Assembly: GCA_002716355.1 (NCBI GenBank)
Contig: PBAU01000004.1
Coordinates: 1-21,236 of the forward strand
Reading direction: 5' to 3'
DNA from: a bacterium
Lineage (GTDB): Bacteria > UBP7 > UBA6624
DNA length: 21,236 nt
The notes under the pieces: generated by a model
Databases searched by the model: none
What the model was told of the DNA's origin: nothing
The model's input: the letters and a program-made list of their open reading frames with translations, nothing else
Made by a program: the position numbers and the translations under genes
Shown: positions 5,714 through 21,236 of the stretch, piece after piece
Layout: each line of letters starts with the position of its first letter
How positions within the stretch are numbered: the first letter of the stretch is position 1

Positions 5714-5714
5714 A

Positions 5715-6650: not shown

Positions 6651-6657
6651 TTCTTGA

Positions 6658-7647: not shown

Positions 7648-7651
7648 TTTT

Positions 7652-8608
7652 TTACATTCCTAACCTATGTTTATACCAATTAATTGTTTTTTCAATTCCT
7701 ATATCTAAAGATGTTTCTGCTTTAAACCCAATTTTTTCTTCAGCTTTTTTATTTGACAATACTCTACGTTTTTGACCTGATGGTTTATCCATATCGAATT
7801 TTATCTCAGGATCTGTATTGGTAATACTTAGAATTTTTCTTGCTAATTCATCTATAGAAACAAATTCTCCACTAGCTAGATTAATCGGATCTCCAACACA
7901 ATAATTTTCCATTGCAAGTAACATTCCTTTAGCCGCATCTTTTGCATAGATATATTCTCTAATCGGACTACCGTCCCCCCAAATTACAAAAGGATCCATT
8001 TTCTTAATTGCTTTCATTATTAGAGAGCCTAACGCATGTGCTGTTTCAAGATCATCACTATCTCTAGGACCATAAGAATTTGATGGTCTAACAATTGCTA
8101 TGTCCATCCCATATTCTTTGTGAAATGCTATTGCTTGTCTCTCTCCCATACGTTTTGACCATGAATATGATGCATGTGCTTCTGGTGGATTTCCTTTCCA
8201 TGCATCTCCTTCTTCGAGAGTTTTCTCATCATTTGGATAAATACAAGTACAACTCGCATAAAGAAATTTTTCAATTTTTTCATTTTTTGCACTTTCTAAA
8301 ATATTCCCATCCATGATGAGATTAGGGGTGAGTGTACTGGCAGGATGAGTGCTGGTTCTACCTAAGCCGCCTGTATATGCTGCTAAATGAAAAATATAAT
8401 CCATATCCTTCACTACATTATCTGAGAATTTCCTATCAGTCAAATCTCCCCGCATAATATCTAATTCTAATTTCTTTAATTCATCTGGAATCTCTCTTTC
8501 ATGTTCAATAATTCTGACATTTGCTCCTTTTTCTACTAGTAGTTCCACCAAATGAGAACCAATCATACCGGTTCCTCCTGTAACAAGAATTTTTTTATCA
8601 GAATACAT
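7652..8608 (-). CDS. Extended SDR NAD-dependent epimerase/reductase (GDP-mannose 3,5-epimerase / GDP-fucose-synthase-like signature)
   Basis: 318-aa ORF with ATG at 8606-8608. ILVTGGTGMIGSHLV. ASCTCIYP (SSxCIYP-type motif of 3,5-epimerase/4-reductase enzymes). YSWSK catalytic YxxxK. VRPSNSYGPRD. One nt separates it from the aminotransferase stop. Confidence 0.8.
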   Translation of the reverse strand: MYSDKKILVTGGTGMIGSHLVELLVEKGANVRIIEHEREIPDELKKLELDIMRGDLTDRKFSDNVVKDMDYIFHLAAYTGGLGRTSTHPASTLTPNLIMDGNILESAKNEKIEKFLYASCTCIYPNDEKTLEEGDAWKGNPPEAHASYSWSKRMGERQAIAFHKEYGMDIAIVRPSNSYGPRDSDDLETAHALGSLIMKAIKKMDPFVIWGDGSPIREYIYAKDAAKGMLLAMENYCVGDPINLASGEFVSIDELARKILSITNTDPEIKFDMDKPSGQKRRVLSNKKAEEKIGFKAETSLDIGIEKTINWYKHRLGM

Positions 8609-8609
8609 C

Positions 8610-9716
8610 TTAATCTATAACCAATTTTCTAATAATATCTGTAATGTAGTCTTGTTCTTCTTCTGTCATCTTCAAAAATATTGGTAATCCTAACACTCTT
8701 TCTGAAATATCTTCGCATATTGGAAGCATTCCATTTGAAAAATTATATAATTTTTTATAAATTGGTTGTAAATGTAATGGAGGAAAATTTATTCTTGTTT
8801 CTACTCCATTGTTTTCTAATCCTATTCTAATTTTTTCTCTTAATTTATTATTTTTAAACAGAATTACGTATAACATGAATGTGTGTTTATTATAATTACG
8901 AATCGTTGGCGTAATAATTTCTGAAATTCCTTCCAATTTTTTATTATAATAGTCTGCTAATTGGTTTTTCTTATCTAATATTTCATCTATTCTTTTTAAT
9001 TGAGAAATACCTAGTGCTGCATTAGGATCAGGCATTTTTGCATTCCATCCTATTTCAACATGATGATATCTTCTATCTGCACCGTTTTTTCTTAAAATTT
9101 TACATTTTTCGGCTAATTCATTATCGTTTGTTACAATTAATCCTCCTTCTCCTGTATTCAGATTTTTATCTGGCCCAAATGAGAATCCGGTCATTGTACT
9201 AATTGAACCAACTTTTTTATTTTTATGAACTCCACCTAATGCAGGTGCTGCATCTTCAATTACCGCTAACCCATGTTTTTCGGCTATTTCATTAATCTCT
9301 AAAATCTCTGCGCTCTGTCCACCATAATCAATTGGCATTATTGCTTTTGTTTTTTCTGTTATTACCGCTTCAATCTTTTTTGGATCTAAGTTGAATGTAT
9401 CTGGTTCAATGTCCACAAATATTGGGTGTGCATTTCTTTGAATTATTACATTAGATGTTGCAGCAAACGTAAATGGAGTTGTAATTACTTCATCTCCATT
9501 TCCTATACCTAGTGCGTCTAATGATAAAAGCATAGATGATGTCCCAGAATTTACTGCAATAGCATTTTTTACACCCATATAGTCTGCCATTTTTTCTTCA
9601 AATTCCGTCACAATTGGACCTGGACCCAAATGATTCGTAATTACGGCATCATACATTGCCTGAGCATCTTCTTCTAAAACATTTGGTTGAGCCACCCTAA
9701 TCTTAAATTCAGCCAA
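8610..9716 (-). CDS. PLP-dependent nucleotide-sugar aminotransferase (DegT/DnrJ/EryC1/StrS family)
   Basis: Family features: AQPNVLEEDAQAMYDAV N-terminus, NSGTSSMLLSL, ITTPFTFAATSN, VIEDAAPALG, and FSFGPDKNLNTGEGG carrying the Schiff-base Lys. The ORF track starts at a TTG at 9761. I prefer the in-frame TTG at 9714-9716 (MAEFKIRVAQPN...). It gives a family-typical N-terminus and lies about 29 nt downstream of a TATA-like box. The start is uncertain (9716 vs 9761). Confidence 0.85.
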   Translation of the reverse strand: MAEFKIRVAQPNVLEEDAQAMYDAVITNHLGPGPIVTEFEEKMADYMGVKNAIAVNSGTSSMLLSLDALGIGNGDEVITTPFTFAATSNVIIQRNAHPIFVDIEPDTFNLDPKKIEAVITEKTKAIMPIDYGGQSAEILEINEIAEKHGLAVIEDAAPALGGVHKNKKVGSISTMTGFSFGPDKNLNTGEGGLIVTNDNELAEKCKILRKNGADRRYHHVEIGWNAKMPDPNAALGISQLKRIDEILDKKNQLADYYNKKLEGISEIITPTIRNYNKHTFMLYVILFKNNKLREKIRIGLENNGVETRINFPPLHLQPIYKKLYNFSNGMLPICEDISERVLGLPIFLKMTEEEQDYITDIIRKLVID

Positions 9717-9737
9717 AACTATGTTTTTTAGACTCGT

Positions 9738-9750
9738 TTTGTATAATAAC
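9738..9750 (-). promoter_or_regulatory. Candidate archaeal TATA box for the aminotransferase-SDR-SDR operon
   Basis: The minus strand reads GTTATTATACAAA, centred about 29 nt upstream of the TTG at 9716. The geometry fits a leaderless or short-leader archaeal promoter. By eye only. Confidence 0.3.
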
Positions 9751-9790
9751 TGTACGAACAATTTGTACCGTTTGTGAACAGTAGTAACGA

Positions 9791-9801
9791 TTATCTTTAA
9801 T
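9791..9801 (+). promoter_or_regulatory. Candidate TATA box for the GT2-methyltransferase-GT-C operon
   Basis: TTATCTTTAAT, centred about 26 nt upstream of the TTG start at 9822. By eye only. Confidence 0.25.
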
Positions 9802-9821
9802 CTCGTTAAGTTTTGATATAG

Positions 9822-10514
9822 TTGTCAACTGCAGTACTAATACTCACATTAAACGAAATTGATGGAATAAAGGTAATTTTACCTAAAATTGATAAATCTT
9901 GGGCAGAAGAAATAGTTGTTATTGATGGAGGTTCTACAGATGGAACTATTGAAGAAGCAAAAAAAATGGGTTTTAAGGTAATCGTACAAAAAAAACGTGG
10001 ACATGGTGATGCTATTGTAACTGGTGTTAATGCAACATCATCTGATAATATTGTAATTTTTGGCCCCGATGGGAATCATGAACCTGAAGAAATTCCAAGA
10101 TTAATAAAAAAAATAGAGGATGGTTTCGATCAAGTATTAATATCTAGATTTGGTAAAGGTTCAAAAAATTATGATGCAGTTGGAGTGAAAGGAAAATTAA
10201 TTGATTATTTTGGAAATAAAATGTTTGCATTTCTTGTCAATGTTTTTTTTGGTGGTCATTGGACTGATAGCTTAAATGAAAGTAGAATAATTTCAAGAAA
10301 AGCATTTTTTGATCTAGATTTTGATTCGTTACAAATGGGTTCAACACAATTAATGAGTATTAGAGGACTAAAGAAAAAACAAAAGATATGTGAATTAGTT
10401 GGGAATGAAGGTGCTCGTATTGGTGGTAAAAGGAAAATGCGTCCATTACATGTTGGTGCTGATCTTAGTAGACAAATATTATCTGAATTTTATTTTTGGT
10501 GTAAGAAAAAATGA
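9822..10514 (+). CDS. Glycosyltransferase family 2 (GT-A fold), soluble/peripheral, no TM helices
   Basis: 230-aa ORF with TTG start at 9822. AVLILTLNE...IVVIDGGSTDGTIEEAKKMG is the canonical GT2 N-terminal nucleotide-binding region. FGPDGNHEPEE sits in the DxD position. Its stop overlaps the next start (ATGA at 10511-10514). Confidence 0.75.
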   Translation: MSTAVLILTLNEIDGIKVILPKIDKSWAEEIVVIDGGSTDGTIEEAKKMGFKVIVQKKRGHGDAIVTGVNATSSDNIVIFGPDGNHEPEEIPRLIKKIEDGFDQVLISRFGKGSKNYDAVGVKGKLIDYFGNKMFAFLVNVFFGGHWTDSLNESRIISRKAFFDLDFDSLQMGSTQLMSIRGLKKKQKICELVGNEGARIGGKRKMRPLHVGADLSRQILSEFYFWCKKK

Positions 10515-11218
10515 AAACTGATGATTATGAATTTTATAAAGATTCTTTTGATATATTAGATAATAATTATGCTTTATGGATGAAAGAGAAAACTAATTTA
10601 TTGATTAAATTATTTGAAGGAAAAAAAATTGTTGAAGTTGGATGTGGAAATGGCTTATTATTAAAAAATTTTCCGAGAGATAAATTTGATTTTACAGGAA
10701 TTGATTTTTCAAAAGGCAATCTTCAACATGCAAAGAAAAAAAATCCTGATCTAAATTTTTTTCAAGCAGATCTTACAAAAAAATCTTCATGGAATGAACA
10801 TGAAAATAAATTTGATACTGTGCTTTGTTCAGAAGTACTAGAACATATTGAGGATGATGGTCTTGCGTTGACAATTTTAAATTCATTATTAAAAACAAAT
10901 GGTACGTTAGTTGTTACTGTTCCTGCATTTCCATTACTTTTGTCAAAATTTGACATAAAAGAGGGACATGTTCGTAGATATACAAAAAATTCTATATCTG
11001 AAATTGTAACTAACGCTGGCTTTATGATTGAAGAAATTAGATTTTGGAATGTCTTTGGTTTTTTTGGTTGGTTACTTTTTTTCAAAATTCTTAATCGTGG
11101 ATTTGAAGAATCCACTAATTCGTTTCTTTCTTCGTTAATGGGTAATTTTCTTAAAATTGAATCAAAGATAAAATTCCCTTTCGGACAGACAATTATCTTA
11201 AAAGCACGGAAATTATAA
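10511..11218 (+). CDS. Class I SAM-dependent methyltransferase
   Basis: 235-aa ORF with ATG at 10511. Motif I VEVGCGNGLLL, acidic loop GIDFS, motif CSEVLEHIEDD, post-III VVTVP. Hydrophobic C-terminal segment FWNVFGFFGWLLFFKIL may be a membrane-association helix. Translationally coupled to the GT2 gene. Confidence 0.8.
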   Translation: MKTDDYEFYKDSFDILDNNYALWMKEKTNLLIKLFEGKKIVEVGCGNGLLLKNFPRDKFDFTGIDFSKGNLQHAKKKNPDLNFFQADLTKKSSWNEHENKFDTVLCSEVLEHIEDDGLALTILNSLLKTNGTLVVTVPAFPLLLSKFDIKEGHVRRYTKNSISEIVTNAGFMIEEIRFWNVFGFFGWLLFFKILNRGFEESTNSFLSSLMGNFLKIESKIKFPFGQTIILKARKL

Positions 11219-11240
11219 TCAATGAAAAAATGTTCTCTAA

Positions 11241-11250
11241 TTTAAATAGG
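11241..11250 (+). promoter_or_regulatory. Candidate internal TATA box upstream of the GT-C gene
   Basis: TTTAAATAGG, centred about 26 nt upstream of the GTG at 11271, within the 52-nt gap after the methyltransferase gene. Confidence 0.3.
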
Positions 11251-11270
11251 AATCTAAAATGTGAATCAAC

Positions 11271-12920
11271 GTGTTAGTATCAGATCAGTCAATAAATTTC
11301 TCAAAAAAGAAAATTCTTTCAATATTGGTAATAGTTATGATAATTTCTTTAGGTTTCAAATTATACCTTATAGATTTCTCTTCACTACCTGTTGAAGATA
11401 CATATGGTTATGTGATTCGTGCCATTGCTCATACAAATGGAGATTTTTCTGAAAATGAACGAAAAACTTTGGGTTGGTCGATATTTCTTTCACCATTCAT
11501 GTTACTTTTGGATTCAACTGAACCATTAGATTACATCAATGCAGCTCGAATACTGAGTATTATTGTTTCAACGGTAACCATCTATCCCATGTATCTATTA
11601 GCAAGAAAATTCTTCAATGAAAAATTTTCTATTGCTGCATCTTGTTTGTTTGCATTTCAACCTCATCTAAATTATAATTCTGTACAGGGAATATCTGAAC
11701 CATTATTTATTCTTCTTTCAATTTTAAGTTTTTATTTCATATTGCATCAAGATAATAGAATAAAATATGTGGCATTTCTTACTGCAGGACTAATGTTCTG
11801 GGTAAGATTCAATGGTATTATCGTTTTAATTATTATTTCAATTTTATATTTCTACAATAGTAATTATTCAAAAAAACAAATTTCAAAATTTCTTCTTGCA
11901 TTATTTATTTTTATTCTTGTGCTTAGTCCAACTCTAATTCAACGGTATGATCAATTTGGTGATCCTCTCTATTTTTCTCAATCAAATACTATATTCTTAG
12001 AAAATTATGTTTCAGTTGTTGCAGAAAATACTGATATGGAAAATTATACTGCGTCAGATTATATTGAAGATAATGGAATTTTATCATTTTTTAATAAATT
12101 TGTGCTAAATGGTATTTTTAACATTGCACAATCAATCTATAAAATATTATTTCCTTACATGATTGTCTTATTCCCTATCGGAGTTTTCTTCTCTATTCGT
12201 GCATTTGATCAATCAAAAAAATTTCTTAAAAGTAATTGGATATGGATTTTTGCGTCACTAGGTGTATTTCTCATATATTTTTCAATTGTACCTGAAAAAA
12301 GATTATTGTACTTTCTTATACCTAATTTGATACTATTTTCAGTTATTCCTATTGAGCGATTAATAAAATATGGATTGAGTACATTTTCATTTAACAGAAA
12401 TCAAAAAAATATCTCATTCATAATTGTAATCTTAATAATATTGGTATTGTCTATTGTTTATACTTCTTATTATGAACTAACAGATAAAAAAACTGAAAAT
12501 GAGAAATTATTATTTTCTGAAATAATTAATAAAAAATTAAATGGAAAAATACTTGATGCTGGTTATACATTACAAAGTCTCATGTATGTTTCTTTGAATG
12601 AACCTGATAGTAATTTTAAAGAATTTGGTATATCTAAGAATGTTAACGATTGGTGGATTGGAACAAAAAATCTCAATGTAATCAATTTGTATGCAACTGA
12701 TTTTGAAAATTTTATTTTAGTTTCACAAGAAAATAATCTAAATTATCTATCAATAAATAAAGATGGAGTTAATATGGAATGGTATCCTTACTTAGAAGAT
12801 GTTTATGATAATGAAAATGATTTTCCTCAACTCAAAAAAATTTTTGATTCACAAGAGAATGGATTTGAAAATTTTCATGTAAAAATATTTGAAATACGTA
12901 ATGATGATTTTAAACCTTAA
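11271..12920 (+). CDS. GT-C fold membrane glycosyltransferase (ArnT/PMT_2-like, polyprenyl-phosphate-sugar dependent) with C-terminal extracytoplasmic domain
   Basis: 549-aa ORF with GTG at 11271. More than 10 predicted TM helices. Acidic motif in the first loop (LPVEDTYGY). Core segment ARILSIIVSTVTIYPMYLLARKFFNEKFSIAASCLFAFQPHL...SEPLF is typical of the PMT_2/ArnT family. A soluble tail of about 145 aa follows the last TM. Paralogous to the 14999-16621 product. Confidence 0.7.
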   Translation: MLVSDQSINFSKKKILSILVIVMIISLGFKLYLIDFSSLPVEDTYGYVIRAIAHTNGDFSENERKTLGWSIFLSPFMLLLDSTEPLDYINAARILSIIVSTVTIYPMYLLARKFFNEKFSIAASCLFAFQPHLNYNSVQGISEPLFILLSILSFYFILHQDNRIKYVAFLTAGLMFWVRFNGIIVLIIISILYFYNSNYSKKQISKFLLALFIFILVLSPTLIQRYDQFGDPLYFSQSNTIFLENYVSVVAENTDMENYTASDYIEDNGILSFFNKFVLNGIFNIAQSIYKILFPYMIVLFPIGVFFSIRAFDQSKKFLKSNWIWIFASLGVFLIYFSIVPEKRLLYFLIPNLILFSVIPIERLIKYGLSTFSFNRNQKNISFIIVILIILVLSIVYTSYYELTDKKTENEKLLFSEIINKKLNGKILDAGYTLQSLMYVSLNEPDSNFKEFGISKNVNDWWIGTKNLNVINLYATDFENFILVSQENNLNYLSINKDGVNMEWYPYLEDVYDNENDFPQLKKIFDSQENGFENFHVKIFEIRNDDFKP

Positions 12921-12946
12921 TTTCATTTATTATTAAAAATCTGTAA

Positions 12947-14938
12947 TTATATTCCCATTGTTGAATGTGTTGATTCAAAACTTTTTCCATCATTTTTATC
13001 TGAATTTCTGTCAACACGTGTATTGTCTATTCTTAGATTTTCAGGGTGACATTTGTAATCACGTGAACGTCTACCATACCAGATTGTTTTATAGCCCCAT
13101 TTTATGGGGTCCGTCTCGTCAATTGGATTTTTATAATTATATGTGGTCTTTTTTCCTATTAAACTAGAATTTTCTTCAGTGAAAAACTTTTTCCAATCAA
13201 ACTCAAAATCTGAAGTTTTTATTTCATCATTATAATCTCGCGTAGTAAGAATGAAAACCTGAAATTTAGCTAAATCTCTTAGTACATTTTCTGACTCGTT
13301 TAATCCACATTCTTTATCAACATAAGTAAGTAAATTAAAAATTGCATCTTGCAGTACATCTTTATCTCTTGTTAATCGTAACCAACTTGCTTCTTCAATT
13401 GGCCAAATTATATCTCCTAGATCTGCATCGTGATGATCCCATCCCTTTCCTGAATATCCATTATCTCTAAATTCAATGACTTTGTTTAATTCATCATTTA
13501 AAATTGAATCAGATTTTCGTGCATATTCTAAAAATTTTTCATAGAATGTAACAAATTGTAAATTATGTGTTTTATTAAAATAACTTGTAACATATTCTAA
13601 AATTCCGAGACTTTGTAATGTTAAAAATGACCACGAATAAAGATAAATTTCTTTTAATTCATCTAAAGAACACATATTATTTTCTGTAGCCAGATATTCA
13701 AATTCTTGAATCCCTCTATTATGAATTGAAGAATGAACTAACATTATTGGGGATTTCACCAATTTTATTCCATATTTTTCTCTGTATTCTGGAACATTCA
13801 TTGGTGCATTTGGCAGAACACTACAATGATAAATAAAAACTGTATCGATTTTTGTATGTGCAATATTTTCTAATCCTTGTTTAAATGTCTCTAGCGTTTC
13901 ACCTGGAAGTCCCATAATTAATTCAGTATATGTTGGAATATTATTTTCCCTAAACGTTGCTGTTAATTCTCCAAATGAATCAAATTTAATATTTGCTCGT
14001 TTCATAATGTTTAATGTATTAGTATCAAGTGATTGTACAGCTAGAGTAACTGCACCTAATACTCCACCTTCTTGTAACTCTTTTGCAATTGGAATGATTC
14101 TATCTGATGAATTCTTTGCCCATGCTGGTCTAATTCTTTCTGGAAAATGTTTTTTTAATGCAACCTCTTTTAATTTTTGTGCAATTTTAAAATCTCTTTC
14201 TTGAAAAATTCCGAAATTTGCATCACAACAATCTATGTATGGTATTTTATTATCGCCAAACCACTCGATTTCTTGAAATAATTTTGATTCTTCCCATTTT
14301 CTAACTCTGCTTTTTGTTGCACTTCCCCAGTCACAAAATGTACATTGATATGGACAACCTCTATTAGTTTCCCACGAAGAAATCCATTTTATTCCATCTA
14401 TTTTATCAACTAGTTCCCAAACTGTATTTGTTAAATATGGTGATGGTAGTTCATCTAAGTTACTAATTCTTTCTTGTGGCGCTGTTCTGAAATCTTTTGT
14501 TTCTATACCTTTAATTTGTGAATAATTTTTGTCTTTCAAATATGCAATAAGAATTTCTTCAAATACATATTCTCCTTCACCGTGGACAATTATATCCACA
14601 AAAGGATTTTCTTTAAAAAAATCTGGAGATAAATCTGGTATCTGTGGTCCGCCAAAAATTATAGTACATTCTGGATTTATCTTTTTTATTTCTCGTGCAA
14701 GATATGTTGTAATTTCCCAATTCCAAACATAACAAGAACAAAGCAAAATATCACTATTCTTACATTCTTGAATGTAATCCTCAACCTTATTTCTAAATAC
14801 AAAACTTTTCTCAAAACTAAAATTTGATGCTAATTCAGGTTTAGACTTGATATATGCTACAAGGGTTGCTATACTATATGGAAAATGAATCTGATCTCCA
14901 TATTGATAATTAAATTGTGAACTGTTAACTTTTATCAT
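12947..14938 (-). CDS. Class B (B12-binding domain) radical SAM enzyme with long C-terminal extension
   Basis: 663-aa ORF with ATG at 14936-14938. N-terminal cobalamin-binding-like Rossmann region (DILLCSCYVWNW...TIIFGGPQIPD...IIVHGEGEYVFEEIL). Radical SAM cluster motif NRGCPYQCTFCDWG, with Cys195/199/202 codons at 14354-14356, 14342-14344 and 14333-14335. I do not recognise the roughly 250 residues after the TIM-barrel core. Confidence 0.85.
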   Translation of the reverse strand: MIKVNSSQFNYQYGDQIHFPYSIATLVAYIKSKPELASNFSFEKSFVFRNKVEDYIQECKNSDILLCSCYVWNWEITTYLAREIKKINPECTIIFGGPQIPDLSPDFFKENPFVDIIVHGEGEYVFEEILIAYLKDKNYSQIKGIETKDFRTAPQERISNLDELPSPYLTNTVWELVDKIDGIKWISSWETNRGCPYQCTFCDWGSATKSRVRKWEESKLFQEIEWFGDNKIPYIDCCDANFGIFQERDFKIAQKLKEVALKKHFPERIRPAWAKNSSDRIIPIAKELQEGGVLGAVTLAVQSLDTNTLNIMKRANIKFDSFGELTATFRENNIPTYTELIMGLPGETLETFKQGLENIAHTKIDTVFIYHCSVLPNAPMNVPEYREKYGIKLVKSPIMLVHSSIHNRGIQEFEYLATENNMCSLDELKEIYLYSWSFLTLQSLGILEYVTSYFNKTHNLQFVTFYEKFLEYARKSDSILNDELNKVIEFRDNGYSGKGWDHHDADLGDIIWPIEEASWLRLTRDKDVLQDAIFNLLTYVDKECGLNESENVLRDLAKFQVFILTTRDYNDEIKTSDFEFDWKKFFTEENSSLIGKKTTYNYKNPIDETDPIKWGYKTIWYGRRSRDYKCHPENLRIDNTRVDRNSDKNDGKSFESTHSTMGI

Positions 14939-14953
14939 ATAATCTGGACCTCA

Positions 14954-14970
14954 AATTTATAATTTATAAT
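14954..14970 (-). promoter_or_regulatory. Candidate TATA box for the radical SAM gene
   Basis: The minus strand reads ATTATAAATTATAAATT (plus strand AATTTAT repeated about 2.4 times), centred about 24 nt upstream of the ATG at 14938. Confidence 0.35.
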
Positions 14971-14998
14971 TTTCATATAATTTATTACTAAATTTCCT

Positions 14999-16621
14999 TT
15001 ATTTTGTTAAATTATCAAATTTCTCATAGTCAATCTTGAATATTTTAACATGGTAACTGAATTTATCTTCTTTTGAGTCATAGACTATTTCTAAAAATGG
15101 ATATTTATGTTCATTTTCTCTAATATCTTTGATAAATTCTGGTCTATTTGGATTATCATCTACTAACAAATATTCTAAATTCTCATCTCTTGCATTATTT
15201 AGAAATTCATTTAATGATCTTGCCTCATAACAACTATCACATCCAATTGTTATTCCTCCACTTGCACCCTGAATTACTTCTATCTGGTTGGGGATATCAG
15301 CAAATAATACAGGAAATTTATCTAGAATTGTTGCTTCTATAATTTTTCCACTAACATAAACTGATTCAGGATCATAATCATTAATTACATTTGTCATCTC
15401 GCTTATTTTTATTCCAATTTTATATGCTTCAATTTCTCGTTCATAATCAATTTTTTTATATTCCAAAAAAATAATTGAGGTAAGAATTATCCCAACAATC
15501 AACAAACCAATTAACAAATTATCTTTTTTTATTTTTCTTGTTATACTCTCAATAAAAGACAGTGAAATCAAAATTAAAATTGGTACAGTTATGAACAAAT
15601 ATTTCACTTCAGAAAATTCTCTCGAAAATGCATAAAATGCTGGAATTATCATTATAATACTAAAAATAAAAATTATCTTTCTATCTGAATTAAAATTTTT
15701 AAAAAATAAAATTAAACCACCAGGAATAAAAAATAATAAGTATGGAATCATTAACCAACCAAATAATTTAACCATGTTTAACATTCCTTTAGTAATCTTT
15801 GTTAGAAAATTATCCTTTGTATCAAACATTGCGTTAGTAACTGGGTCAGATTGATAGAATGTTGACTGTGATATAATATGACTAAATATCCCATCATTGC
15901 CTGTAACTTCTATTCTTAATCCCATTGCAGGAAGTAATATCAGAATAAAAACACCTAGTGCAACAAAATATTTTGGAATATCTTTCTTATGATCTTTAAA
16001 TCTGAAAAATAATAAAATAAAGAAAGGAACAATTAGTAAAATCCCTTCATATCTAATTAATGATAATAATGCTAGTAATCCAAATGAAAGATAAATCATC
16101 TTAAATTTTTTTGATAAAAATAGGTAAACACTAAATGTAAATAGAAAAATAAAAATGGATTCTGGTAACCCTGAAATTGAATTTATCAATAATCTTGGTT
16201 CAAAAACAAAGATACATGCACCAATTAATGCAATTTTGGTCTTAAAAAACCGTTTAGATAATAAGAAAATAGGAATTATTGTAGCAGCTGAAAAAATTAT
16301 AGATGTTAATCTTTGTATAATATGGAAATCTATGAATGTATCTGGATTTGTTATGTTGAAGATTACAGATAAGAATACTGGCCAACCATTATTTGGGAAG
16401 TTATAACCTCTTGGTAATTCTCCTAGAATGCTTGTATCTACTGCATACCAAAAATATAACGAACCATCTAAAGTTATTGGTAATTCAAAAGATGTATAGT
16501 AAATTCTGATAATTATTCCAGCTGTGAATAATAAAATTAATTGAATTCTTATATCCAAAAATATTCTTGAAAAATTACTTTCTTTCGTAGAAGTGAGATC
16601 TTTTTCCATATCTTTATTCAA
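14999..16621 (-). CDS. GT-C fold membrane glycosyltransferase (ArnT/PMT_2-like), paralogue of the 11271-12920 product
   Basis: 540-aa ORF with TTG at 16619-16621 (alternative ATG at 16607-16609). Multi-TM. Core segment QRLTSIIFSAATIIPIFLLSKRFFKTKIALIGACIFVFEPRL...PESIF aligns with the other GT-C. The C-terminal soluble domain ends YPFLEIVYDSKEDKFSYHVKIFKIDY, compared with FPQLKKIFDSQENGFENFHVKIFEIRN in the paralogue. Confidence 0.7.
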   Translation of the reverse strand: MNKDMEKDLTSTKESNFSRIFLDIRIQLILLFTAGIIIRIYYTSFELPITLDGSLYFWYAVDTSILGELPRGYNFPNNGWPVFLSVIFNITNPDTFIDFHIIQRLTSIIFSAATIIPIFLLSKRFFKTKIALIGACIFVFEPRLLINSISGLPESIFIFLFTFSVYLFLSKKFKMIYLSFGLLALLSLIRYEGILLIVPFFILLFFRFKDHKKDIPKYFVALGVFILILLPAMGLRIEVTGNDGIFSHIISQSTFYQSDPVTNAMFDTKDNFLTKITKGMLNMVKLFGWLMIPYLLFFIPGGLILFFKNFNSDRKIIFIFSIIMIIPAFYAFSREFSEVKYLFITVPILILISLSFIESITRKIKKDNLLIGLLIVGIILTSIIFLEYKKIDYEREIEAYKIGIKISEMTNVINDYDPESVYVSGKIIEATILDKFPVLFADIPNQIEVIQGASGGITIGCDSCYEARSLNEFLNNARDENLEYLLVDDNPNRPEFIKDIRENEHKYPFLEIVYDSKEDKFSYHVKIFKIDYEKFDNLTK

Positions 16622-16672
16622 TTTAATAAAAATCCATTTTTCTTCCTAATGAAGGAAACTGATGTTTTATCA

Positions 16673-18145
16673 CTAAAATTCAAAGTAAATAAATTCCTCT
16701 GCACTTCCTCTGTAAAATAAAACTACTAAAAGCATGATGATAGTCAAGAAAATTAACCAATGTTTTACTTGTAATGATGAAATTCTTTCACTCACATTTT
16801 TAATTTTTAATGTAATAATTTGTAATATAAGAAAAATAGGAATTAGTATCACTGCAAATTCATTTTGTTGGATAAAATTAATTGTACCATCTATCTCGAA
16901 ATCCCAAATCAAATATTTCTTCATTGAATAAACCATCTCATCAACATCTCTTACTCTAAACGAGATAAATGCAAAAAATATTAAAAACTGTGTTATTAGA
17001 ATACTAGTTATTTTTCCAATTTTTGTTTTAAAGAATTTATTCTTACTAAAATTTGGGAATTGTTTTCTAACCAAAGTATCTACTGCAACATAGATTCCAT
17101 GAATTATACCAAAAATTATAAAATTCCATCCTGCACCATGCCATAAACCTAGTAAAAAGAATGACGTAAATAAACTAGAGAATAATCTTTGTGACGATTT
17201 CCTATTTTTAAAAATTAATGGAAAATAAAGATAATCTCTAACCCATGTTGACAGGCTAATGTGCCATCTTCTCCAAAAATCTGATGGAGATGTAGAAAAA
17301 AATGGTTTTCTAAAATTCGGTGGAACATTTATTCCAATTATTAGTGCTGCTCCAATTGCTATGTCAGAGTATCCTGAAAAGTCTCCATATACTTGAAAAC
17401 CAAATCCAATTGTACCTAAAATAATTGTAAATGACTCATGTCCTATTGGACTATTGAATACATTATCTACCATTGGAGCAATATTATCTGCAAAAAATAA
17501 TTTTTTTAGAAAACCAATTGCCATCATTGTGATTCCTAATTTTAAATTCCTATTATTGATGAAAAATTGTTTTAGTTTAATTTGTGATTTAAGATTTGAA
17601 ATTTTTTCATTTAGTTGCGGTAAAAAATCACTTGCACGTAATATTGGTCCAGCAACTAAGGTCGGAAAAAATGCTACAAATAATCCATATTGTAAAATAG
17701 ATCGGGTTGGTTTTAATGAACCCCTGTAAATATCAATTATATAACTAATTGACTGGAAAGTATAGAATGAAATTCCTATAGGTAAAATTAAATTCAAAAA
17801 TGGGATCTCTGTAAATCCTAAAACTCCAAAAAGTTCATTAATTTGTGAAATTGCAAAGTCTGTGTATTTAAAAAAACCAAGTAAACCTAAACTTCCGCCT
17901 ATTCCAATACCTAACAGAATTTTTCTATTCTTAGGATCTGTTGATTCTGCTATCTTTTTACCTATGAAGTAATGCAAAATTGTTGTATAAACTAATAATA
18001 AAACTAAGTAGCTATCTGAAAAGTATAGAAAGAAAAAACTAGCAACTACTAATAGCGTATGTTGGAATTTTCGATTTTTATAACACACTATAGCTGTTAA
18101 AACAGCTATAAAGAATACGATGAACTCTACCGTTGTAAATAGCAT
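16673..18145 (-). CDS. MBOAT family membrane-bound O-acyltransferase (AlgI/DltB/PatA-like)
   Basis: 490-aa polytopic ORF with ATG at 18143-18145. Both family histidine motifs are present: DFWRRWHISLSTWVRDYLYFPL (His295, nt 17261-17263) and LLGLWHGAGWNF (His336, nt 17138-17140). Also ISFYTFQSISYIIDIYRG and FFPTLVAGPI, typical of AlgI/DltB. Confidence 0.9.
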   Translation of the reverse strand: MLFTTVEFIVFFIAVLTAIVCYKNRKFQHTLLVVASFFFLYFSDSYLVLLLVYTTILHYFIGKKIAESTDPKNRKILLGIGIGGSLGLLGFFKYTDFAISQINELFGVLGFTEIPFLNLILPIGISFYTFQSISYIIDIYRGSLKPTRSILQYGLFVAFFPTLVAGPILRASDFLPQLNEKISNLKSQIKLKQFFINNRNLKLGITMMAIGFLKKLFFADNIAPMVDNVFNSPIGHESFTIILGTIGFGFQVYGDFSGYSDIAIGAALIIGINVPPNFRKPFFSTSPSDFWRRWHISLSTWVRDYLYFPLIFKNRKSSQRLFSSLFTSFFLLGLWHGAGWNFIIFGIIHGIYVAVDTLVRKQFPNFSKNKFFKTKIGKITSILITQFLIFFAFISFRVRDVDEMVYSMKKYLIWDFEIDGTINFIQQNEFAVILIPIFLILQIITLKIKNVSERISSLQVKHWLIFLTIIMLLVVLFYRGSAEEFIYFEF

Positions 18146-19104
18146 TATTCTTTTAACTCCTTAATCATCCATTCTTTGATATCATCTGTGTAGATCTGTG
18201 CATTTCTATTAATTGCAACATGATATGGGTCACTCCAAATCTCATTCTCAGCATATTTGTCGTGTAAATATAATATGTCAATATCAAATCTCTGAGAAAT
18301 ATTATCTATTATTTTCTCAAAATTCTCAATCTCACTCTGTTTCACATGTTCAAAAACTAATTCATTGTAAGGTGGTGTGAAAATCAAAACTTTAATTCCA
18401 TTTGATTGAAATGTTTCAATAATTTTGTTTACAGCTAAAAATTCACTGTTTTCAATATCATTATCAATTCCTCTGAATCCTACACCTTCTCCGTAAATAG
18501 ATTTAATCTCATCTTGAGAAAGAATATTGTTTTCTCTGTAATTCATAAATGGATGAGTTGGATAATCTGGTCCTCTCAAAATATATTTGATTGATTGTAT
18601 CATTCTATCTTTTGGTGAAGTTGGAAATTTTTCAGAAAAATCTAAATTAAATATTGAGGATAAGAAATTTACAAAAAATTTGTCAGGCTCTACGATATTT
18701 CCAAATAACCCTCTATTGAAAAACTCACTTCTATAATCTCTTGATTTCTCAAAATCTGTCATACTTATTCCATAAATAATGACTTTTGGTTCTAGTTCTA
18801 CTAAGTGCATCATACTATTCACTCTTCTAGTAGGTGTATCGCTCATATCTGCTAAATTATAAATCTCATAGTCTAATTGATTCATTATCAATTCATCTGA
18901 AATTCTATCCACATCTATTGAATAGACATTACTGGCACCTATGAAAAAAATTGATTCTTTTTTAATGATCTCTTTCTCTGAAAAAATACCATTCCATTCT
19001 GGATCATAAATGTGAAGATATAGATCCATAAATAAATAAAATATTCCACCTGTAAAACAAAATGCAACAAGTAATGCTAAAAGAATTTTAAAATTCAAAT
19101 CCAT
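18145..19104 (-). CDS. Membrane-anchored extracytoplasmic partner of the MBOAT; DltD/AlgJ-like SGNH-type acyl-transfer protein (tentative)
   Basis: 319-aa ORF with ATG at 19102-19104. Single N-terminal TM (ILLALLVAFCFTGGIFYLF). FFIGASNVY (Ser58) near the N-terminus and WSDPYHVA (Asp292-x-x-His295) near the C-terminus match SGNH block I and block V spacing. Its stop overlaps the MBOAT start by 1 nt (TAATG at 18143-18147). A GAGG lies about 8 nt upstream of the ATG. Confidence 0.55.
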   Translation of the reverse strand: MDLNFKILLALLVAFCFTGGIFYLFMDLYLHIYDPEWNGIFSEKEIIKKESIFFIGASNVYSIDVDRISDELIMNQLDYEIYNLADMSDTPTRRVNSMMHLVELEPKVIIYGISMTDFEKSRDYRSEFFNRGLFGNIVEPDKFFVNFLSSIFNLDFSEKFPTSPKDRMIQSIKYILRGPDYPTHPFMNYRENNILSQDEIKSIYGEGVGFRGIDNDIENSEFLAVNKIIETFQSNGIKVLIFTPPYNELVFEHVKQSEIENFEKIIDNISQRFDIDILYLHDKYAENEIWSDPYHVAINRNAQIYTDDIKEWMIKELKE

Positions 19105-19117
19105 TTAGGCCTCTATT

Positions 19118-20002
19118 TTATTTATTATTTTCACGAACAACATTAACTAAACTATATAGTAAAATTGCAGATATGAGAAATATCACTGCAATTAAAATTG
19201 TACCTGCAGCAACTACTGTCAAATTAGTATTTAATCTACCAATTTCTGCATAATACTGTATTGAAAAATATGTAAAAGCTATTCCTACAATGAAAAATAT
19301 TACTGATGGTATCCCATAGAATTTTAATGGATGTTCAATAGATGTATATTTTATTGTACTAAAGATCACTGATGAACCATGCGTTACAGGATTCTGTGTA
19401 GATGTATCTCCTTCATACAAAATTTTAATTGGAACTTCTGAAATTTTAAAATTCTTGCTACTTGCTTTAATTAAAATTTCAGTTGATATTCCCATACCTA
19501 ACTCAGATGGATTTAATTCATCAACAACTTGTTTTGAATAAGCTCTAAACCCACTTTGTGAATCAGTTAATTTCTCTTTTATACTTGCGTTTGTTATCTT
19601 TGTAATTACTTTAATTCCAACTCTTCTATAATTGGGTACTTCTTTCTCACTATCATCTAAAAATCTTGAACCTACAACTAAATCAGCATCTTGATTATTT
19701 ATTGGTTCTATAACTTTTTGAACATCTTCGATTCTATGTTGTCCATCAGCATCAAATGTTACTAAAATATCACCTTCGATATTTTTAGCCTTTGTAAAAA
19801 TACTTCTAATTGCTCCGCCATACCCTAAATTTTTTTCATGGTTAACCACTATTGCTCCCATTTTTTCAGCTATCTGTGATGTCAAATCCGTTGAACCATC
19901 ATTGCACACTATCACCTTATCTGCAATTTTTGATAATTTTGTAATGATTGTTGCAATGTTTTTTTCTTCATTAAATGCCGGAATTCCTACAATTATCTTC
20001 AA
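19118..20002 (-). CDS. GT2 polyprenyl(dolichyl)-phosphate sugar synthase type glycosyltransferase (GtrB/ArnC/DPM1-like) with two C-terminal TM helices
   Basis: 294-aa ORF. TTG at 20000-20002 gives a canonical MKIIVGIPAFNEEKNI N-terminus. VIVCNDGSTDLT, FDADGQH (DxD) and GFRAY motifs. Two C-terminal TM helices (GIPSVIFFIVGIAFTYFSI; VVAAGTILIAVIFLISAILLYSL), as in GtrB/ArnC-type enzymes. Confidence 0.85.
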   Translation of the reverse strand: MKIIVGIPAFNEEKNIATIITKLSKIADKVIVCNDGSTDLTSQIAEKMGAIVVNHEKNLGYGGAIRSIFTKAKNIEGDILVTFDADGQHRIEDVQKVIEPINNQDADLVVGSRFLDDSEKEVPNYRRVGIKVITKITNASIKEKLTDSQSGFRAYSKQVVDELNPSELGMGISTEILIKASSKNFKISEVPIKILYEGDTSTQNPVTHGSSVIFSTIKYTSIEHPLKFYGIPSVIFFIVGIAFTYFSIQYYAEIGRLNTNLTVVAAGTILIAVIFLISAILLYSLVNVVRENNK

Positions 20003-20107
20003 TTTTTAACCTTGTGACTGATTTCAAATTTTAGCCTATAAAATATACTACTCAAAGTTTTTCTGTTTTTTTGAAATTTTTATGATATATTCATTCATTT
20101 GAATAGA

Positions 20108-20120
20108 AAATATAATTAAA
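20108..20120 (+). promoter_or_regulatory. Candidate TATA box for the 2,3-dehydratase/oxidoreductase unit
   Basis: AAATATAATTAAA, centred about 27 nt upstream of the GTG at 20141. It lies in the 138-nt divergent intergenic region shared with the GT2 gene. The minus strand has TAAAATTT and TATATTTTATAGG about 27 and 39 nt upstream of 20002. Confidence 0.3.
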
Positions 20121-20140
20121 GAACCTGTTGAAGATTTCTC

Positions 20141-20890
20141 GTGTTAGTTGATGAAATTAAAGCAATATTGGAAAAAAATGATTATGAGCTAGATCCTGAT
20201 GGAATATCACGAATTCAAACCATGTTAGAATCAATAAGGGATGATAATCAAATAAACAAACTTGACTTCATAATTAACTGGTTTAATAAAAAACGTGAAG
20301 AATCTGATATGGTTGTTGAAGAAATTGGAATTAAAGAATTAGATAAATGGAATGTTGATCATAATTCAGGAAATATTTTTCATGAATCGGGAGGATTCTT
20401 TAGAATCATAGGAATCAAAGCTTCAAATACATTTGATCGTGAAGTTGGCAAGAAAGGATGGACTCAACCAATGATTGCAAAAAACCCTGGAGGGATATTA
20501 GGAATTATCATGAAAAGAATCAATGGCATTCCTCATTATCTTCTACAAGCAAAGGCAGAACCTGGTAACATTGGAAAATTACAATTATCTCCAACACTTC
20601 AAGCAACAACAAGTAATTTGTTAAAAGCTCATGGTGGCGCAAAACCATTATTTGCAGAATATTTTAATGAAGAAAATAATCCAAAAATCATCTATGCAAA
20701 ATGGCAATCAGAAGATGGTGGTAGATTTCATTTAAAATCAAATTATAATATGATTGTAGAAGTAAAAAGTGATGAAGAATTAGAAATTCCAGATTCATTC
20801 ATTTGGGTTACATTATATCAGATAAAACAATTAATGAAGATTGAAAATGTTGTTGGACCACATGTAAGAGGAATTATTTCTTATCTGTGA
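20141..20890 (+). CDS. NDP-hexose 2,3-dehydratase family protein (Hexose_dehydrat / EvaA-like), single-domain half-size form
   Basis: 249-aa ORF with GTG at 20141. Strong family pattern: GGFFRIIGIKA...REV..KGWTQPMI...GGILGII...GIPHYLLQAKAEPGNIGKLQLSPTLQATTSNLLKAHGG..PLFAEYF...WQSEDGGRFHLKSNYNMIVEV...IPDSFIWVTLYQIKQLM...NVVGPHVRGIISYL. Only one such domain is present; characterised enzymes carry two. Confidence 0.8.
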   Translation: MLVDEIKAILEKNDYELDPDGISRIQTMLESIRDDNQINKLDFIINWFNKKREESDMVVEEIGIKELDKWNVDHNSGNIFHESGGFFRIIGIKASNTFDREVGKKGWTQPMIAKNPGGILGIIMKRINGIPHYLLQAKAEPGNIGKLQLSPTLQATTSNLLKAHGGAKPLFAEYFNEENNPKIIYAKWQSEDGGRFHLKSNYNMIVEVKSDEELEIPDSFIWVTLYQIKQLMKIENVVGPHVRGIISYL

Positions 20891-20893
20891 AAA

Positions 20894-21236
20894 ATGAATC
20901 CTCTAAAATTTGGTATTATTGGTTGTTCCCGAATTGCAAAACGTTCAGTAATTCCTGCTATCATAAAATCAGAATTTGCAGAACTTGAAATAATTGGTAG
21001 TCGTTCAACAGACAAAGCAAAAGAATTTGCTAGTGAGTTTAACTGTGAAAAATTTGGTACTTATGAAGATGTCATATCCGATGACTCAGTTGATGCCGTA
21101 TACATCTCAACTCCAATTGGTACCCATGAAGAATGGTCAATCAAAGCATCAGAGGCAGGTAAGCATGTTTACGTTGAAAAATCTAGTGCAGTAAATTTTG
21201 ATTCAGCGCAAAAAATGGTTGAATCTGCAAAAGAAA
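20894..21236 (+). CDS. Gfo/Idh/MocA family NAD(P)-dependent oxidoreductase (candidate NDP-hexose 3-ketoreductase), 3'-truncated by the window edge
   Basis: Not in the ORF track because no stop is reached. ATG at 20894, 4 nt after the dehydratase stop. My own translation: MNPLKFGIIGCSRIAKRSVIPAIIKSEFAELEIIGSRSTDKAKEFASEFNCEKFGTYEDVISDDSVDAVYISTPIGTHEEWSIKASEAGKHVYVEKSSAVNFDSAQKMVESAKE. Family motifs GIIGCSRIA, VDAVYISTP..HEEW and AGKHVYVEK(P/S). Confidence 0.8.
   Translation, partial: MNPLKFGIIGCSRIAKRSVIPAIIKSEFAELEIIGSRSTDKAKEFASEFNCEKFGTYEDVISDDSVDAVYISTPIGTHEEWSIKASEAGKHVYVEKSSAVNFDSAQKMVESAKE

Follow-up and report, generated by a model that had tools for sequence, protein, structure and literature searches.

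Two anciently diverged GT2/GT-C modules in a probable surface-glycosylation island of marine Nitrosopumilales

In the archaeal AglD/AglR/AglS system of Haloferax, a family 2 glycosyltransferase (GT2) loads dolichyl phosphate with a single sugar on the cytoplasmic side, a flippase-type protein carries it over the membrane, a glycosyltransferase of the GT-C type hands it to a surface glycan on the outside, and AglP is the pathway methyltransferase (PMC3871713). Among the bacterial three-component systems, arrangements with more than one GT-C have been noted, and it has been proposed that ORF13, predicted to be a cytoplasmic epimerase, alters the sugar while it is lipid-linked (PMC11127046). A stretch of 21,236 nucleotides (contig PBAU01000004.1 of assembly GCA_002716355.1, positions 1 to 21,236, referred to below as the window) is here compared with these systems. 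Between positions 9822 and 20002 it carries two convergent gene sets, cassette A and cassette B, each with a GT2 and a GT-C gene. In the reading preferred here, to which a probability of about 0.62 is given, this region is the conserved core of a surface-glycosylation island of marine Nitrosopumilales and holds two anciently diverged extracytoplasmic glycosylation modules.

Marine ammonia-oxidising archaea (AOA) belong to the most abundant cells of the ocean. They possess a large flexible glycosylation island of unknown function, which is the largest flexible genomic island of these organisms (bioRxiv 10.1101/2024.04.23.590705). The present comparison tells a conserved core (two GT2/GT-C modules and flippase-like genes) apart from lineage-specific add-ons within such an island. 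It also yields candidate genes and predictions, namely methylated and acylated amino- or deoxy-sugars on a dolichyl-phosphate carrier, with a bearing on the cell coat and on virus recognition. Its value is moderate to low with regard to mechanism and higher as a guide to the surface chemistry of AOA.

Two modules and their recurrence

The region contains eight genes:

9822-10514, plus strand: GT2a, GT2 of 230 aa (Pfam Glycos_transf_2)
10511-11218, plus strand: MT, class I S-adenosylmethionine (SAM) methyltransferase (Pfam Methyltransf_23, 72 bits)
11271-12920, plus strand: GTCa, PMT_2-type GT-C (PMT_2 38.8 bits, cutoff 26.1)
12947-14938, minus strand: rSAM, cobalamin-dependent radical SAM protein (PF02310 B12-binding and PF04055 Radical_SAM)
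14999-16621, minus strand: GTCb, PMT_2-type GT-C (PMT_2 28.5 bits)
16673-18145, minus strand: MBOAT (PF03062, 110 bits)
18145-19104, minus strand: DltD/DUF1574-like protein (weak DUF1574/DltD Pfam matches)
19118-20002, minus strand: GT2b, GT2 of 294 aa (Pfam Glycos_transf_2)

An earlier, sequence-only reading of this DNA had described two convergent cassettes, each consisting of a GT2, a decorating enzyme and a GT-C, on either side of the radical SAM gene. All of its open reading frames (ORFs) and family calls hold (six-frame ORF list; Pfam, NCBIfam), the sequence confirms the ATGA overlap of GT2a with MT, and rSAM is indeed the sole gene between the two GT-C ends. The DltD-like and MBOAT genes overlap by one base (TAATG). 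The strand of rSAM, which the earlier description did not give, is the minus strand; the gene lies 60 bp downstream of GTCb and by layout is the fifth gene of the minus-strand run and no neutral spacer. The window is AT-rich, with a G+C content of 23-34%.

About 170 related loci (designated by L numbers) were gathered by similarity to the GTCb or rSAM protein and annotated with the window proteins by tblastn. The 30 GT-C loci of at least 12 kb are termed long loci, and upstream counts refer to genes with enough upstream sequence. A same-strand GT2 gene was found within 2.7 kb upstream of 29 out of 32 GTCb-type and 17 out of 21 GTCa-type genes of the related Nitrosopumilales loci, which is the conserved linkage of synthase and GT-C that is seen in three-component systems. 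Because this adjacency recurs in dozens of independent loci, it exceeds what is expected by chance, and the GT2/GT-C pairing holds as a repeated unit with intervening genes that vary by lineage. Cassette B takes the form GT2b-MOP-like-GTCb in 20-21 loci, GT2b-GTCb in 13 and GT2b-DltD-like-MBOAT-GTCb in four, so that the commonest cassette B appears to read synthase, flippase-like protein, GT-C. Cassette A takes the form GT2a-MT-GTCa in 11 cases and GT2a-GTCa in seven. The full layout of the window is retained in loci whose cytoplasmic enzymes are just 58-73% identical. Homologues of both GT-Cs were found in metagenomes of marine and freshwater origin, and the small number with a taxon name are from Nitrosopumilus and Ca. 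Nitrosopelagicus. The closest relatives in a genome scan anchored on rSAM belong to Nitrosopumilales, Nitrosarchaeum, Nitrosopelagicus and marine group I single-cell genomes. The assignment of the window to Nitrosopumilales rests on such named matches (Nitrosopumilus, Ca. Nitrosopelagicus and marine group I).

Both GT2 proteins score best against enzymes that form lipid-linked sugars. The best NCBIfam models are AglJ (98 bits), dolichyl-phosphate (Dol-P)-hexose transferase (66 bits) and PpgS for GT2a, and PpgS (159 bits) and AglJ (145 bits) for GT2b, all below their equivalog cutoffs. Their solved relatives in a PDB sequence search are limited to the Dol-P-mannose synthase of Pyrococcus (PfDPMS, 5mlz), which is the best match of GT2a (E=2e-12) and matches GT2b at E=1.7e-17, and to ArnC, the second-best for both; GT2b has an additional weak match to GmaR. 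The topology check that had been proposed was run and gave no transmembrane (TM) segments for GT2a and two at the C-terminus of GT2b, which also carries the canonical DADGQH motif, kept in 43 orthologues. GT2a and GT2b are accordingly listed here as the probable dolichyl-phosphate-sugar synthases of cassettes A and B, respectively, and these matches support the idea that the window twice combines a lipid-phosphate-sugar synthase with a GT-C downstream of it.

For the GT-C proteins a structure model of GTCa was needed because a PDB sequence search with a GT-C profile returned marginal AglB and STT3 matches alone. For GTCa about 9-11 TM helices are predicted, along with a soluble domain of about 150 aa at the C-terminus, and the AlphaFold model of the protein (pLDDT 88, pTM 0.89) assigns it a GT-C fold: Foldseek retrieved STT3, AglB, ALG9/ALG12, Pmt4, PglB and ArnT, all with probability 1.0, the top matches being GT-C enzymes that use lipid-linked donors, with STT3 and AglB highest. 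Asp43 in the first external loop of GTCa is invariant in a 17-sequence alignment and conserved to at least 90% in an 86-sequence alignment, in both GT-C families. A GT-C fold with an acidic residue in the first external loop, as in three-component systems, is thus found in the GTCa model, to which GTCb is homologous over its full length. The paralogy of the two GT-Cs noticed earlier is confirmed (26% identity over 494 aa, E=9e-39, with an alignment that spans the C-terminal soluble domain), and in homologue searches only sequences of the Nitrosopumilales type belonged to this GT-C subfamily with its C-terminal domain.

An assignment of the GT-Cs as oligosaccharyltransferase (STT3/AglB/PglB) was rejected, as neither alignment contains a conserved WWDxG column and the C-terminal domain of GTCa is small; the DWWIG sequence of GTCa sits in a low-confidence loop of the model and is not conserved. 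The cultured Nitrosopumilus Np. piranensis has a separate single aglB (PMC12153357). The GT-Cs diverge faster than their cytoplasmic neighbours, with identities of 49% (GTCa) and 42% (GTCb) versus 58-73% for the neighbours in L005, and of 62% for GTCb versus 83-88% in L002. Differences occur along the whole protein, with the highest variability in the first 45 residues.

The relationship between the modules was assessed with a neighbour-joining tree of 111 GT-C ORFs, in which GTCa and GTCb fall into two deep clades that are both present in 16 out of the 30 long loci. Relatives at 40-50% identity number in the hundreds for each GT-C, compared with the 26% between GTCa and GTCb, and GT2a and GT2b match each other (31% identity, 59 bits) about as well as they match the Pyrococcus Dol-P-mannose synthase (50 bits for GT2a, 67 bits for GT2b). 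Because orthologues are this much more similar than the paralogues, the clades are deep and the GT2s are so distant, the two modules are best explained by sequence comparison as ancient paralogues that were retained together and not as a recent duplicate with a swapped decorator. Two observations had been named in advance that would speak against the sequence-only reading, and they point in different directions: the GT-Cs are not each other's closest relatives, but the cassettes do share synteny elsewhere, in the 16 long loci. Within the tree, the GTCb genes preceded by the MBOAT form a single derived sub-clade, which is the window's lineage, and the GTCa genes preceded by MT are interspersed with those preceded directly by GT2a. 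By these comparisons the three accessory decorators (MT, the MBOAT/DltD-like pair and rSAM) appear to have been recruited in the window's lineage.

Several points weigh against the preferred reading. The loci were fetched by similarity to GTCb or rSAM and are a biased sample (the metagenome scan used the GTCb family alignment alone, and GTCa-centred loci are under-sampled), and the GT-C tree is a neighbour-joining tree with midpoint rooting and no outgroup. No GT2 or GT-C of the window attains an NCBIfam equivalog cutoff. GT2a has zero TM helices, and in its metal-binding motif the first Asp of the DxD and the following Gln are replaced (GPDGN versus DADLQ in PfDPMS). No GtrA- or Wzx-type flippase is present inside 9822-20002, and the window also lacks the MOP-like gene that separates GT2b from GTCb in 20-21 relatives. 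Neither the 21 kb window nor the 4.5 kb that follow its right end in L097, a contig from a near-identical strain, contains an ORF for a PP-binding carrier or an adenylation-domain ligase. Finally, a study of cultured Nitrosopumilus piranensis did not detect N-glycosylation (PMC12153357), and for this reason the acceptor of the GT-Cs is left broad.

Decorators and alternative readings

The MBOAT is DltB/AlgI-like (TIGR04091 DltB 174 bits, below the cutoff of 375); its sole solved sequence relative is DltB (PDB, E=2e-28), and a WHISLS histidine motif is visible. The DltD-like protein has an N-terminal TM anchor, and its AlphaFold model (pLDDT 84) matches DltD best in Foldseek (6o93/6pfx, E about 2e-5, probability 1.0), followed by SGNH esterases and PatB; Ser58 and His295 are invariant in 45 homologues. 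The combination of a DltB-type MBOAT with a DltD-type SGNH partner is thus present, and the model points to the DltD-like protein as an extracytoplasmic, membrane-anchored SGNH partner of the MBOAT, with which it may work as an MBOAT/SGNH O-acyltransferase pair. A Dlt D-alanylation system was rejected, as neither the window nor the adjoining 4.5 kb of L097 yielded the DltC carrier or the DltA ligase.

An FkbH module for the MBOAT was likewise not found in the window or in the 4.5 kb past its right end in L097. Such a module occurs in relatives: in L005 (16384-21650) a DUF1574/DltD-like gene and an MBOAT are followed by FkbH_N, a PP-binding carrier, a MaoC dehydratase, a short-chain dehydrogenase/reductase (SDR) and a 4'-phosphopantetheinyl transferase, and the same FkbH-carrier arrangement is present in L006-L008 and, in part, in L010, L109, L147, L161 and L170. 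By its gene content this module could make a glyceryl- or lactyl-carrier protein that feeds a Dlt-like trans-membrane acylation, which hints at a carrier-protein acyl donor in those relatives. A literature search returned no relevant account of a polysaccharide system that combines FkbH with an MBOAT.

The decorator of cassette A is the methyltransferase. Its best PDB matches are UbiG (1.8e-9) and DesVI (3e-6), and these and all other matches (BioC among them) span the SAM-binding core alone, so that N- and O-methylation are not discriminated by PDB or NCBIfam. The gene is present in 11 out of 18 resolved GT2a-GTCa pairs, scattered over the tree. MT is thus, from its distribution, an optional decorator, and it would act on an NDP-sugar or a Dol-P-sugar. 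Neither MT nor rSAM has TM segments, and both are predicted to be cytoplasmic.

The sequence-only reading had taken gene order as the order of reactions, with the decoration placed between the GT2 and the GT-C step. Put as an alternative to the preferred reading, the decorators would act on the lipid-linked monosaccharide before the GT-C does, in the way that ArnD acts on Und-P-Ara4FN; as an enzyme that works on a polyprenyl-phosphate sugar, ArnD is a precedent for it. For cassette A this order is plausible, with a cytoplasmic MT that is translationally coupled to GT2a, even though MT is missing from seven out of the 18 pairs. The epimerisation of undP-Ribf proposed for ORF13 (PMC11127046) also speaks for it. 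For cassette B gene order is not supported as reaction order. Like DltD and PatB, which work outside the membrane, the DltD-like partner is an SGNH protein with a TM anchor, and because of this fold and the anchor the acylation is placed at the outer face of the cell and would not occur between the GT2 and GT-C steps. Nor is the MBOAT pair a fixed insert of the GT2b-GTCb unit: it stands between these genes only in the window's own sub-clade, whereas most relatives have a flippase-like gene there or have GT2b abutting GTCb, and carry the MBOAT pair elsewhere. As an account of both cassettes, gene order as reaction order is judged unlikely.

A second alternative concerns GT2a, which could be an ordinary soluble, chain-extending GT2, in which case the donor of GTCa would come from GT2b or from a housekeeping Dol-P-mannose synthase. 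Its lack of a TM helix, its degenerate DxD (GPD) with Asn in place of Gln, and NCBIfam scores that are all far under the equivalog cutoffs are what such an enzyme might display, and because of the missing helices and the variant motif the role of GT2a as a lipid-phosphate-sugar synthase is less secure than that of GT2b. The variant is nevertheless a family form, (G/S/H)PDGN, that is kept in 22 orthologues and aligns residue for residue with the DADLQ of PfDPMS, and its strict conservation implies selection. The best NCBIfam and PDB matches of GT2a are exclusively polyprenyl-phosphate-sugar synthases, the same-strand GT2 closely upstream of 17 out of 21 GTCa genes is mostly of the GT2a type, and TM-less models exist within the class (in NCBIfam, PpgS at 226 and the haloarchaeal Dol-P-hexose transferase at 213 positions). 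The caveat raised earlier, that a TM-less GT2a may merely extend chains, is weakened by these models and not removed by them; a chain-extending GT2a is considered improbable, and GT2a is retained as the probable synthase of cassette A.

A third possibility is that the GT-Cs are ArnT-like and decorate head groups of membrane lipids (e.g., glycosidic glycerol dialkyl glycerol tetraethers) in place of a protein or glycan. Cassette A and its flank mirror the logic of the arn genes (nucleotide-sugar dehydrogenase, SDR, DegT aminotransferase, ArnC-like GT2 and GT-C), and ArnT is among the fold matches of GTCa. It ranks 23rd among them (E=1.6e-4), after STT3, AglB, ALG and Pmt proteins, and the GT-Cs of the window have an extra soluble C-terminal domain, a comparable version of which binds polysaccharide in a bacterial GT-C (PMC11127046). 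A lipid acceptor is accordingly regarded as doubtful, and a glycan or protein outside the cell is kept as the acceptor in the preferred reading.

The radical SAM protein matches TokK (7kdx) over residues 20-587 (E=7e-91) and CysS (5e-65), has both a B12-binding domain (PF02310 35.6 bits, cutoff 32.1) and a radical SAM domain (PF04055 44.1 bits), and the cysteines of its CxxxCxxC motif (C195, C199 and C202) are invariant. The B12 domain, the CxxxCxxC core and the full-length similarity of the TokK/CysS/KedN5 enzymes are thus all present, and rSAM is assigned by homology as a TokK/CysS-type cobalamin-dependent methylase. Against the curated KedN5 family it scores 293 bits, which does not reach the cutoff of 700, in a match limited to residues 53-397, and it appears to belong to a related but separate subfamily. 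Enzymes of the TokK/CysS type methylate unactivated carbons, often iteratively (bioRxiv 10.1101/2021.07.10.451909; PMC12846815).

The sequence-only reading had placed rSAM at the centre of the locus, bracketed by the two cassettes. The related loci do not support such a structural role. Only 10 out of the 30 long GT-C loci contain rSAM; it follows GTCb in the window's lineage, L005-L008, L106 and L120 and is located elsewhere in L102, L104 and L109. In 80 loci anchored on rSAM, from archaea and many Proteobacteria, the recurrent neighbours are SDR epimerases/dehydratases and DegT genes, an MBOAT is sometimes present, and GT-Cs are inconsistent, which indicates that the gene travels with NDP-sugar enzymes rather than with GT-Cs; it is best seen as a putative accessory sugar-modifying gene of the island. 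The rSAM family is widespread in Alpha- and Betaproteobacteria (Bradyrhizobium, Tagaea, Rhodospirillales and others; L021, L025-L090), where it nearly always stands beside SDR epimerases and DegT and in Bradyrhizobium also beside an MBOAT. One rSAM from a metagenome-assembled genome named Sulfuritalea is 51% identical to the archaeal copy, which could reflect transfer or mis-binning.

A more far-reaching proposal is that rSAM extends a methyl group installed by MT, or C-methylates the sugar directly, and together with a DltB/DltD-like archaeal trans-membrane acylation makes up a new surface-sugar chemistry. Relatives of rSAM build ethyl and isopropyl groups by repeated C-methylation. The presence of MT across loci does not correlate with that of rSAM, and the proposal as a whole is given only a slim chance. 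If true, rSAM and DltB/DltD-like chemistry would together tune the charge and hydrophobicity of the S-layer, which has been implicated in concentrating ammonium.

A recent duplication of one GT2-decorator-GT-C cassette within the locus, with a later swap of the decorator (methyl versus acyl), as the sequence-only reading had implied, would account for the mirror-like layout, the homology of the GT2s at 31% identity and the whole architecture shared by the GT-Cs including the C-terminal domain, but it is highly improbable given relatives of each GT-C at 40-50% versus 26% mutual identity, deep clades that co-reside on many contigs, GT2s as distant from each other as from the Pyrococcus synthase and different in TM helices and catalytic motif, and decorators that are lineage-specific inserts and not ancestral.

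Flanking genes and strain-level exchange

The features outside the two cassettes, and a boundary within the region, are the following:

5706-6650, plus strand: flippase-like membrane protein (PF03706 LPG_synthase_TM 135.8 bits; TIGR00374 86 bits, cutoff 43; about 8 TM)
6658-7647, minus strand: LegB-like 4,6-dehydratase (LegB 278 bits, below the equivalog cutoff)
7652-8608, minus strand: SDR epimerase/reductase (GDP-fucose-synthase-like, 171 bits, below the equivalog cutoff)
8610-9761, minus strand: DegT-family aminotransferase (PseC 311 bits, below the equivalog cutoff)
14600-14950, strand not applicable: recombination boundary (identity step versus L097)
20141-20890, plus strand: EvaA-like NDP-hexose 2,3-dehydratase (PF03559 216 bits; EvaA 4j7g, E=1e-66)
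20894-21235, plus strand: start of a Gfo/Idh/MocA oxidoreductase (PF01408 78 bits; cut by the window end)

The protein encoded at 5706-6650 is, from its family matches, a candidate flippase for the lipid-linked sugar. A TIGR00374-type gene occurs in 19 out of the 30 long loci, and in 10 loci it comes immediately after GTCb; either this type or the MOP-like flippase-like gene is present in 25 out of 30. The MOP-like family consists of multi-TM proteins of 383-387 aa encoded directly upstream of GTCb-type genes (L102 8758-9921, L140 8738-9889 and about 35 others), and its match to Polysacc_synt/MOP flippases is borderline (27.5 bits versus a cutoff of 28.2).

The three genes at 6658-9761 form an operon divergent from GT2a that is syntenic with GT2a in L001-L008, L097 and L106, and they probably supply an amino-deoxy sugar for cassette A. 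The 2,3-dehydratase and oxidoreductase genes are divergent from GT2b in the window and likewise in L009, L094, L097 and L141. In these four loci the 2,3-dehydratase is 79-89% identical to that of the window; it is half-size, with 249 aa and one Hexose_dehydrat domain versus the two domains and 471 aa of EvaA. 2-Deoxygenated sugars are unusual in cell-surface glycans. Past the end of the window, L097 continues with another DegT gene, a GT4, a polysaccharide deacetylase and a hexapeptide acyltransferase.

The rest of the window contains a nucleotide-sugar dehydrogenase, an Asn-synthase-like amidotransferase, a GT4 and SDR dehydratases/epimerases, and these sugar genes fit the picture of the AOA glycosylation island. 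At 84-2652 the dehydrogenase gene overlaps by 11 bp with that of the amidotransferase, which has no glutaminase domain, and this pairing suggests a uronamide-type sugar from the predicted functions. A 261-aa ORF at 2678-3463 has a weak, fragment-like match to nucleotide-sugar dehydrogenases and recurs in related loci; a 354-aa ORF at 4649-5713 with one N-terminal TM helix and a weak alpha/beta-hydrolase match also recurs, often beside GTCb.

The contig L097 of the near-identical strain shares 97-100% nucleotide identity with the window over 5002-14600 and 69-89% over 14900-21200. The break falls at the 5' end of rSAM and the spacer between rSAM and GTCb, leaving rSAM on the conserved side together with cassette A, and protein identities in L097 and L091 step at the same place. 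Because identity drops at the rSAM/GTCb junction in L097, cassette B with the 2,3-dehydratase and Gfo/Idh/MocA genes is a divergent allele block that is exchanged as a unit. This allele block is the one direct support for the earlier suggestion of a modular diversification of surface-glycan genes. Of the four contigs with the exact DltD-like protein (L171-L174), three stop no more than about 0.5 kb after the 2,3-dehydratase and the fourth already stops within GT2b; the recurrent assembly break suggests a hypervariable stretch just past the window's right edge.

Proposed mechanism and comparison with known systems

In the mechanism proposed under the preferred reading, the flanking enzymes would each make a modified NDP-sugar, using the LegB-like 4,6-dehydratase, SDR and DegT proteins for cassette A and the EvaA-like 2,3-dehydratase and the Gfo/Idh/MocA oxidoreductase for cassette B. 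The GT2 would move this sugar from the nucleotide onto dolichyl phosphate at the inner membrane face, the lipid-linked sugar would be flipped, with the 5706-6650 protein as the candidate, and the GT-C, with an outward-facing active site (Asp43 in GTCa), would transfer it to an external acceptor, for which a glycan or the S-layer protein is most likely. The cytoplasmic MT and rSAM would act on the NDP- or lipid-linked sugar, rSAM most likely by C-methylation of a sugar carbon or of an existing methyl group, and the MBOAT/SGNH pair most likely O-acylates the glycan at the outer face. Taken as a whole, the observation of the sequence-only reading stands and its architecture is broadly right; the duplication story, gene order as reaction order and rSAM as centre-piece are not supported. 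The modules are best placed as further members of the known three-component (Gtr or AglD-AglR-AglS type) mechanism and point to no new mechanism.

The Arn system (PmrHFIJKLM), in which ArnD modifies the sugar while it is on the lipid carrier, offers a close analogy for cassette A, with an Ugd-type dehydrogenase, an SDR, a DegT aminotransferase (ArnB), a GT2 (ArnC) and a GT-C (ArnT). In contrast to it, the window has MT and no formyltransferase or deformylase, and ArnT is a distant fold match.

The DltB/DltD, AlgI/AlgJ and PatA/PatB systems resemble the acylation genes of cassette B in that an MBOAT, which has a conserved His motif, is encoded next to an SGNH partner with a TM anchor. Unlike DltB/DltD, the window pair has no DltA ligase or DltC carrier beside it, occurs in an archaeal host without teichoic acids and has relatives with an FkbH-ACP-dehydratase-reductase-phosphopantetheinyl transferase module next to the MBOAT. 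The similarity of rSAM to TokK/ThnK/CysS/KedN5 covers the full length of TokK, with the B12-binding domain and CxxxCxxC; its known members belong to antibiotic pathways, where their substrates are a carbapenam or an aryl methoxy group, whereas the clade of the window is found in glycan loci of archaea and many Proteobacteria, next to SDR and DegT genes.

The bacterial three-component systems (GtrA/GtrB/Gtr*, CsbB/GtcA/YfhO, GacI/J/L and Klebsiella O-antigen ribofuranose) share with the window clustered genes for a GT2 and a GT-C, which in the window are a probable polyprenyl-phosphate-sugar synthase and an enzyme predicted to use a lipid-linked donor, as well as auxiliary cytoplasmic sugar enzymes and a strain-level exchange that varies the surface (PMC11127046). 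The window differs from them in that it has no small GtrA-type flippase and presumably uses a dolichol carrier, its pair of paralogous modules has stayed together throughout an order-level radiation, and an MBOAT/SGNH pair and a cobalamin-dependent radical SAM protein are not described for the bacterial systems (PMC11127046).

Haloferax AglD/AglR/AglS shares with the window the archaeal logic of GT2 and GT-C, to which the window would add a candidate flippase-type protein, together with a SAM methyltransferase for a pathway sugar, and in many cassette B relatives a Wzx/MOP-like gene separates GT2b from GTCb. It differs in that aglD is unlinked to aglS, whereas GT2 and GT-C genes are adjacent in the window, which has two modules and no MOP-like gene. 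The sugars of the window are predicted to be amino- or deoxy-hexoses and not mannose, and its GT-Cs belong to a subfamily, marked by a C-terminal domain, that is confined to sequences of the Nitrosopumilales type.

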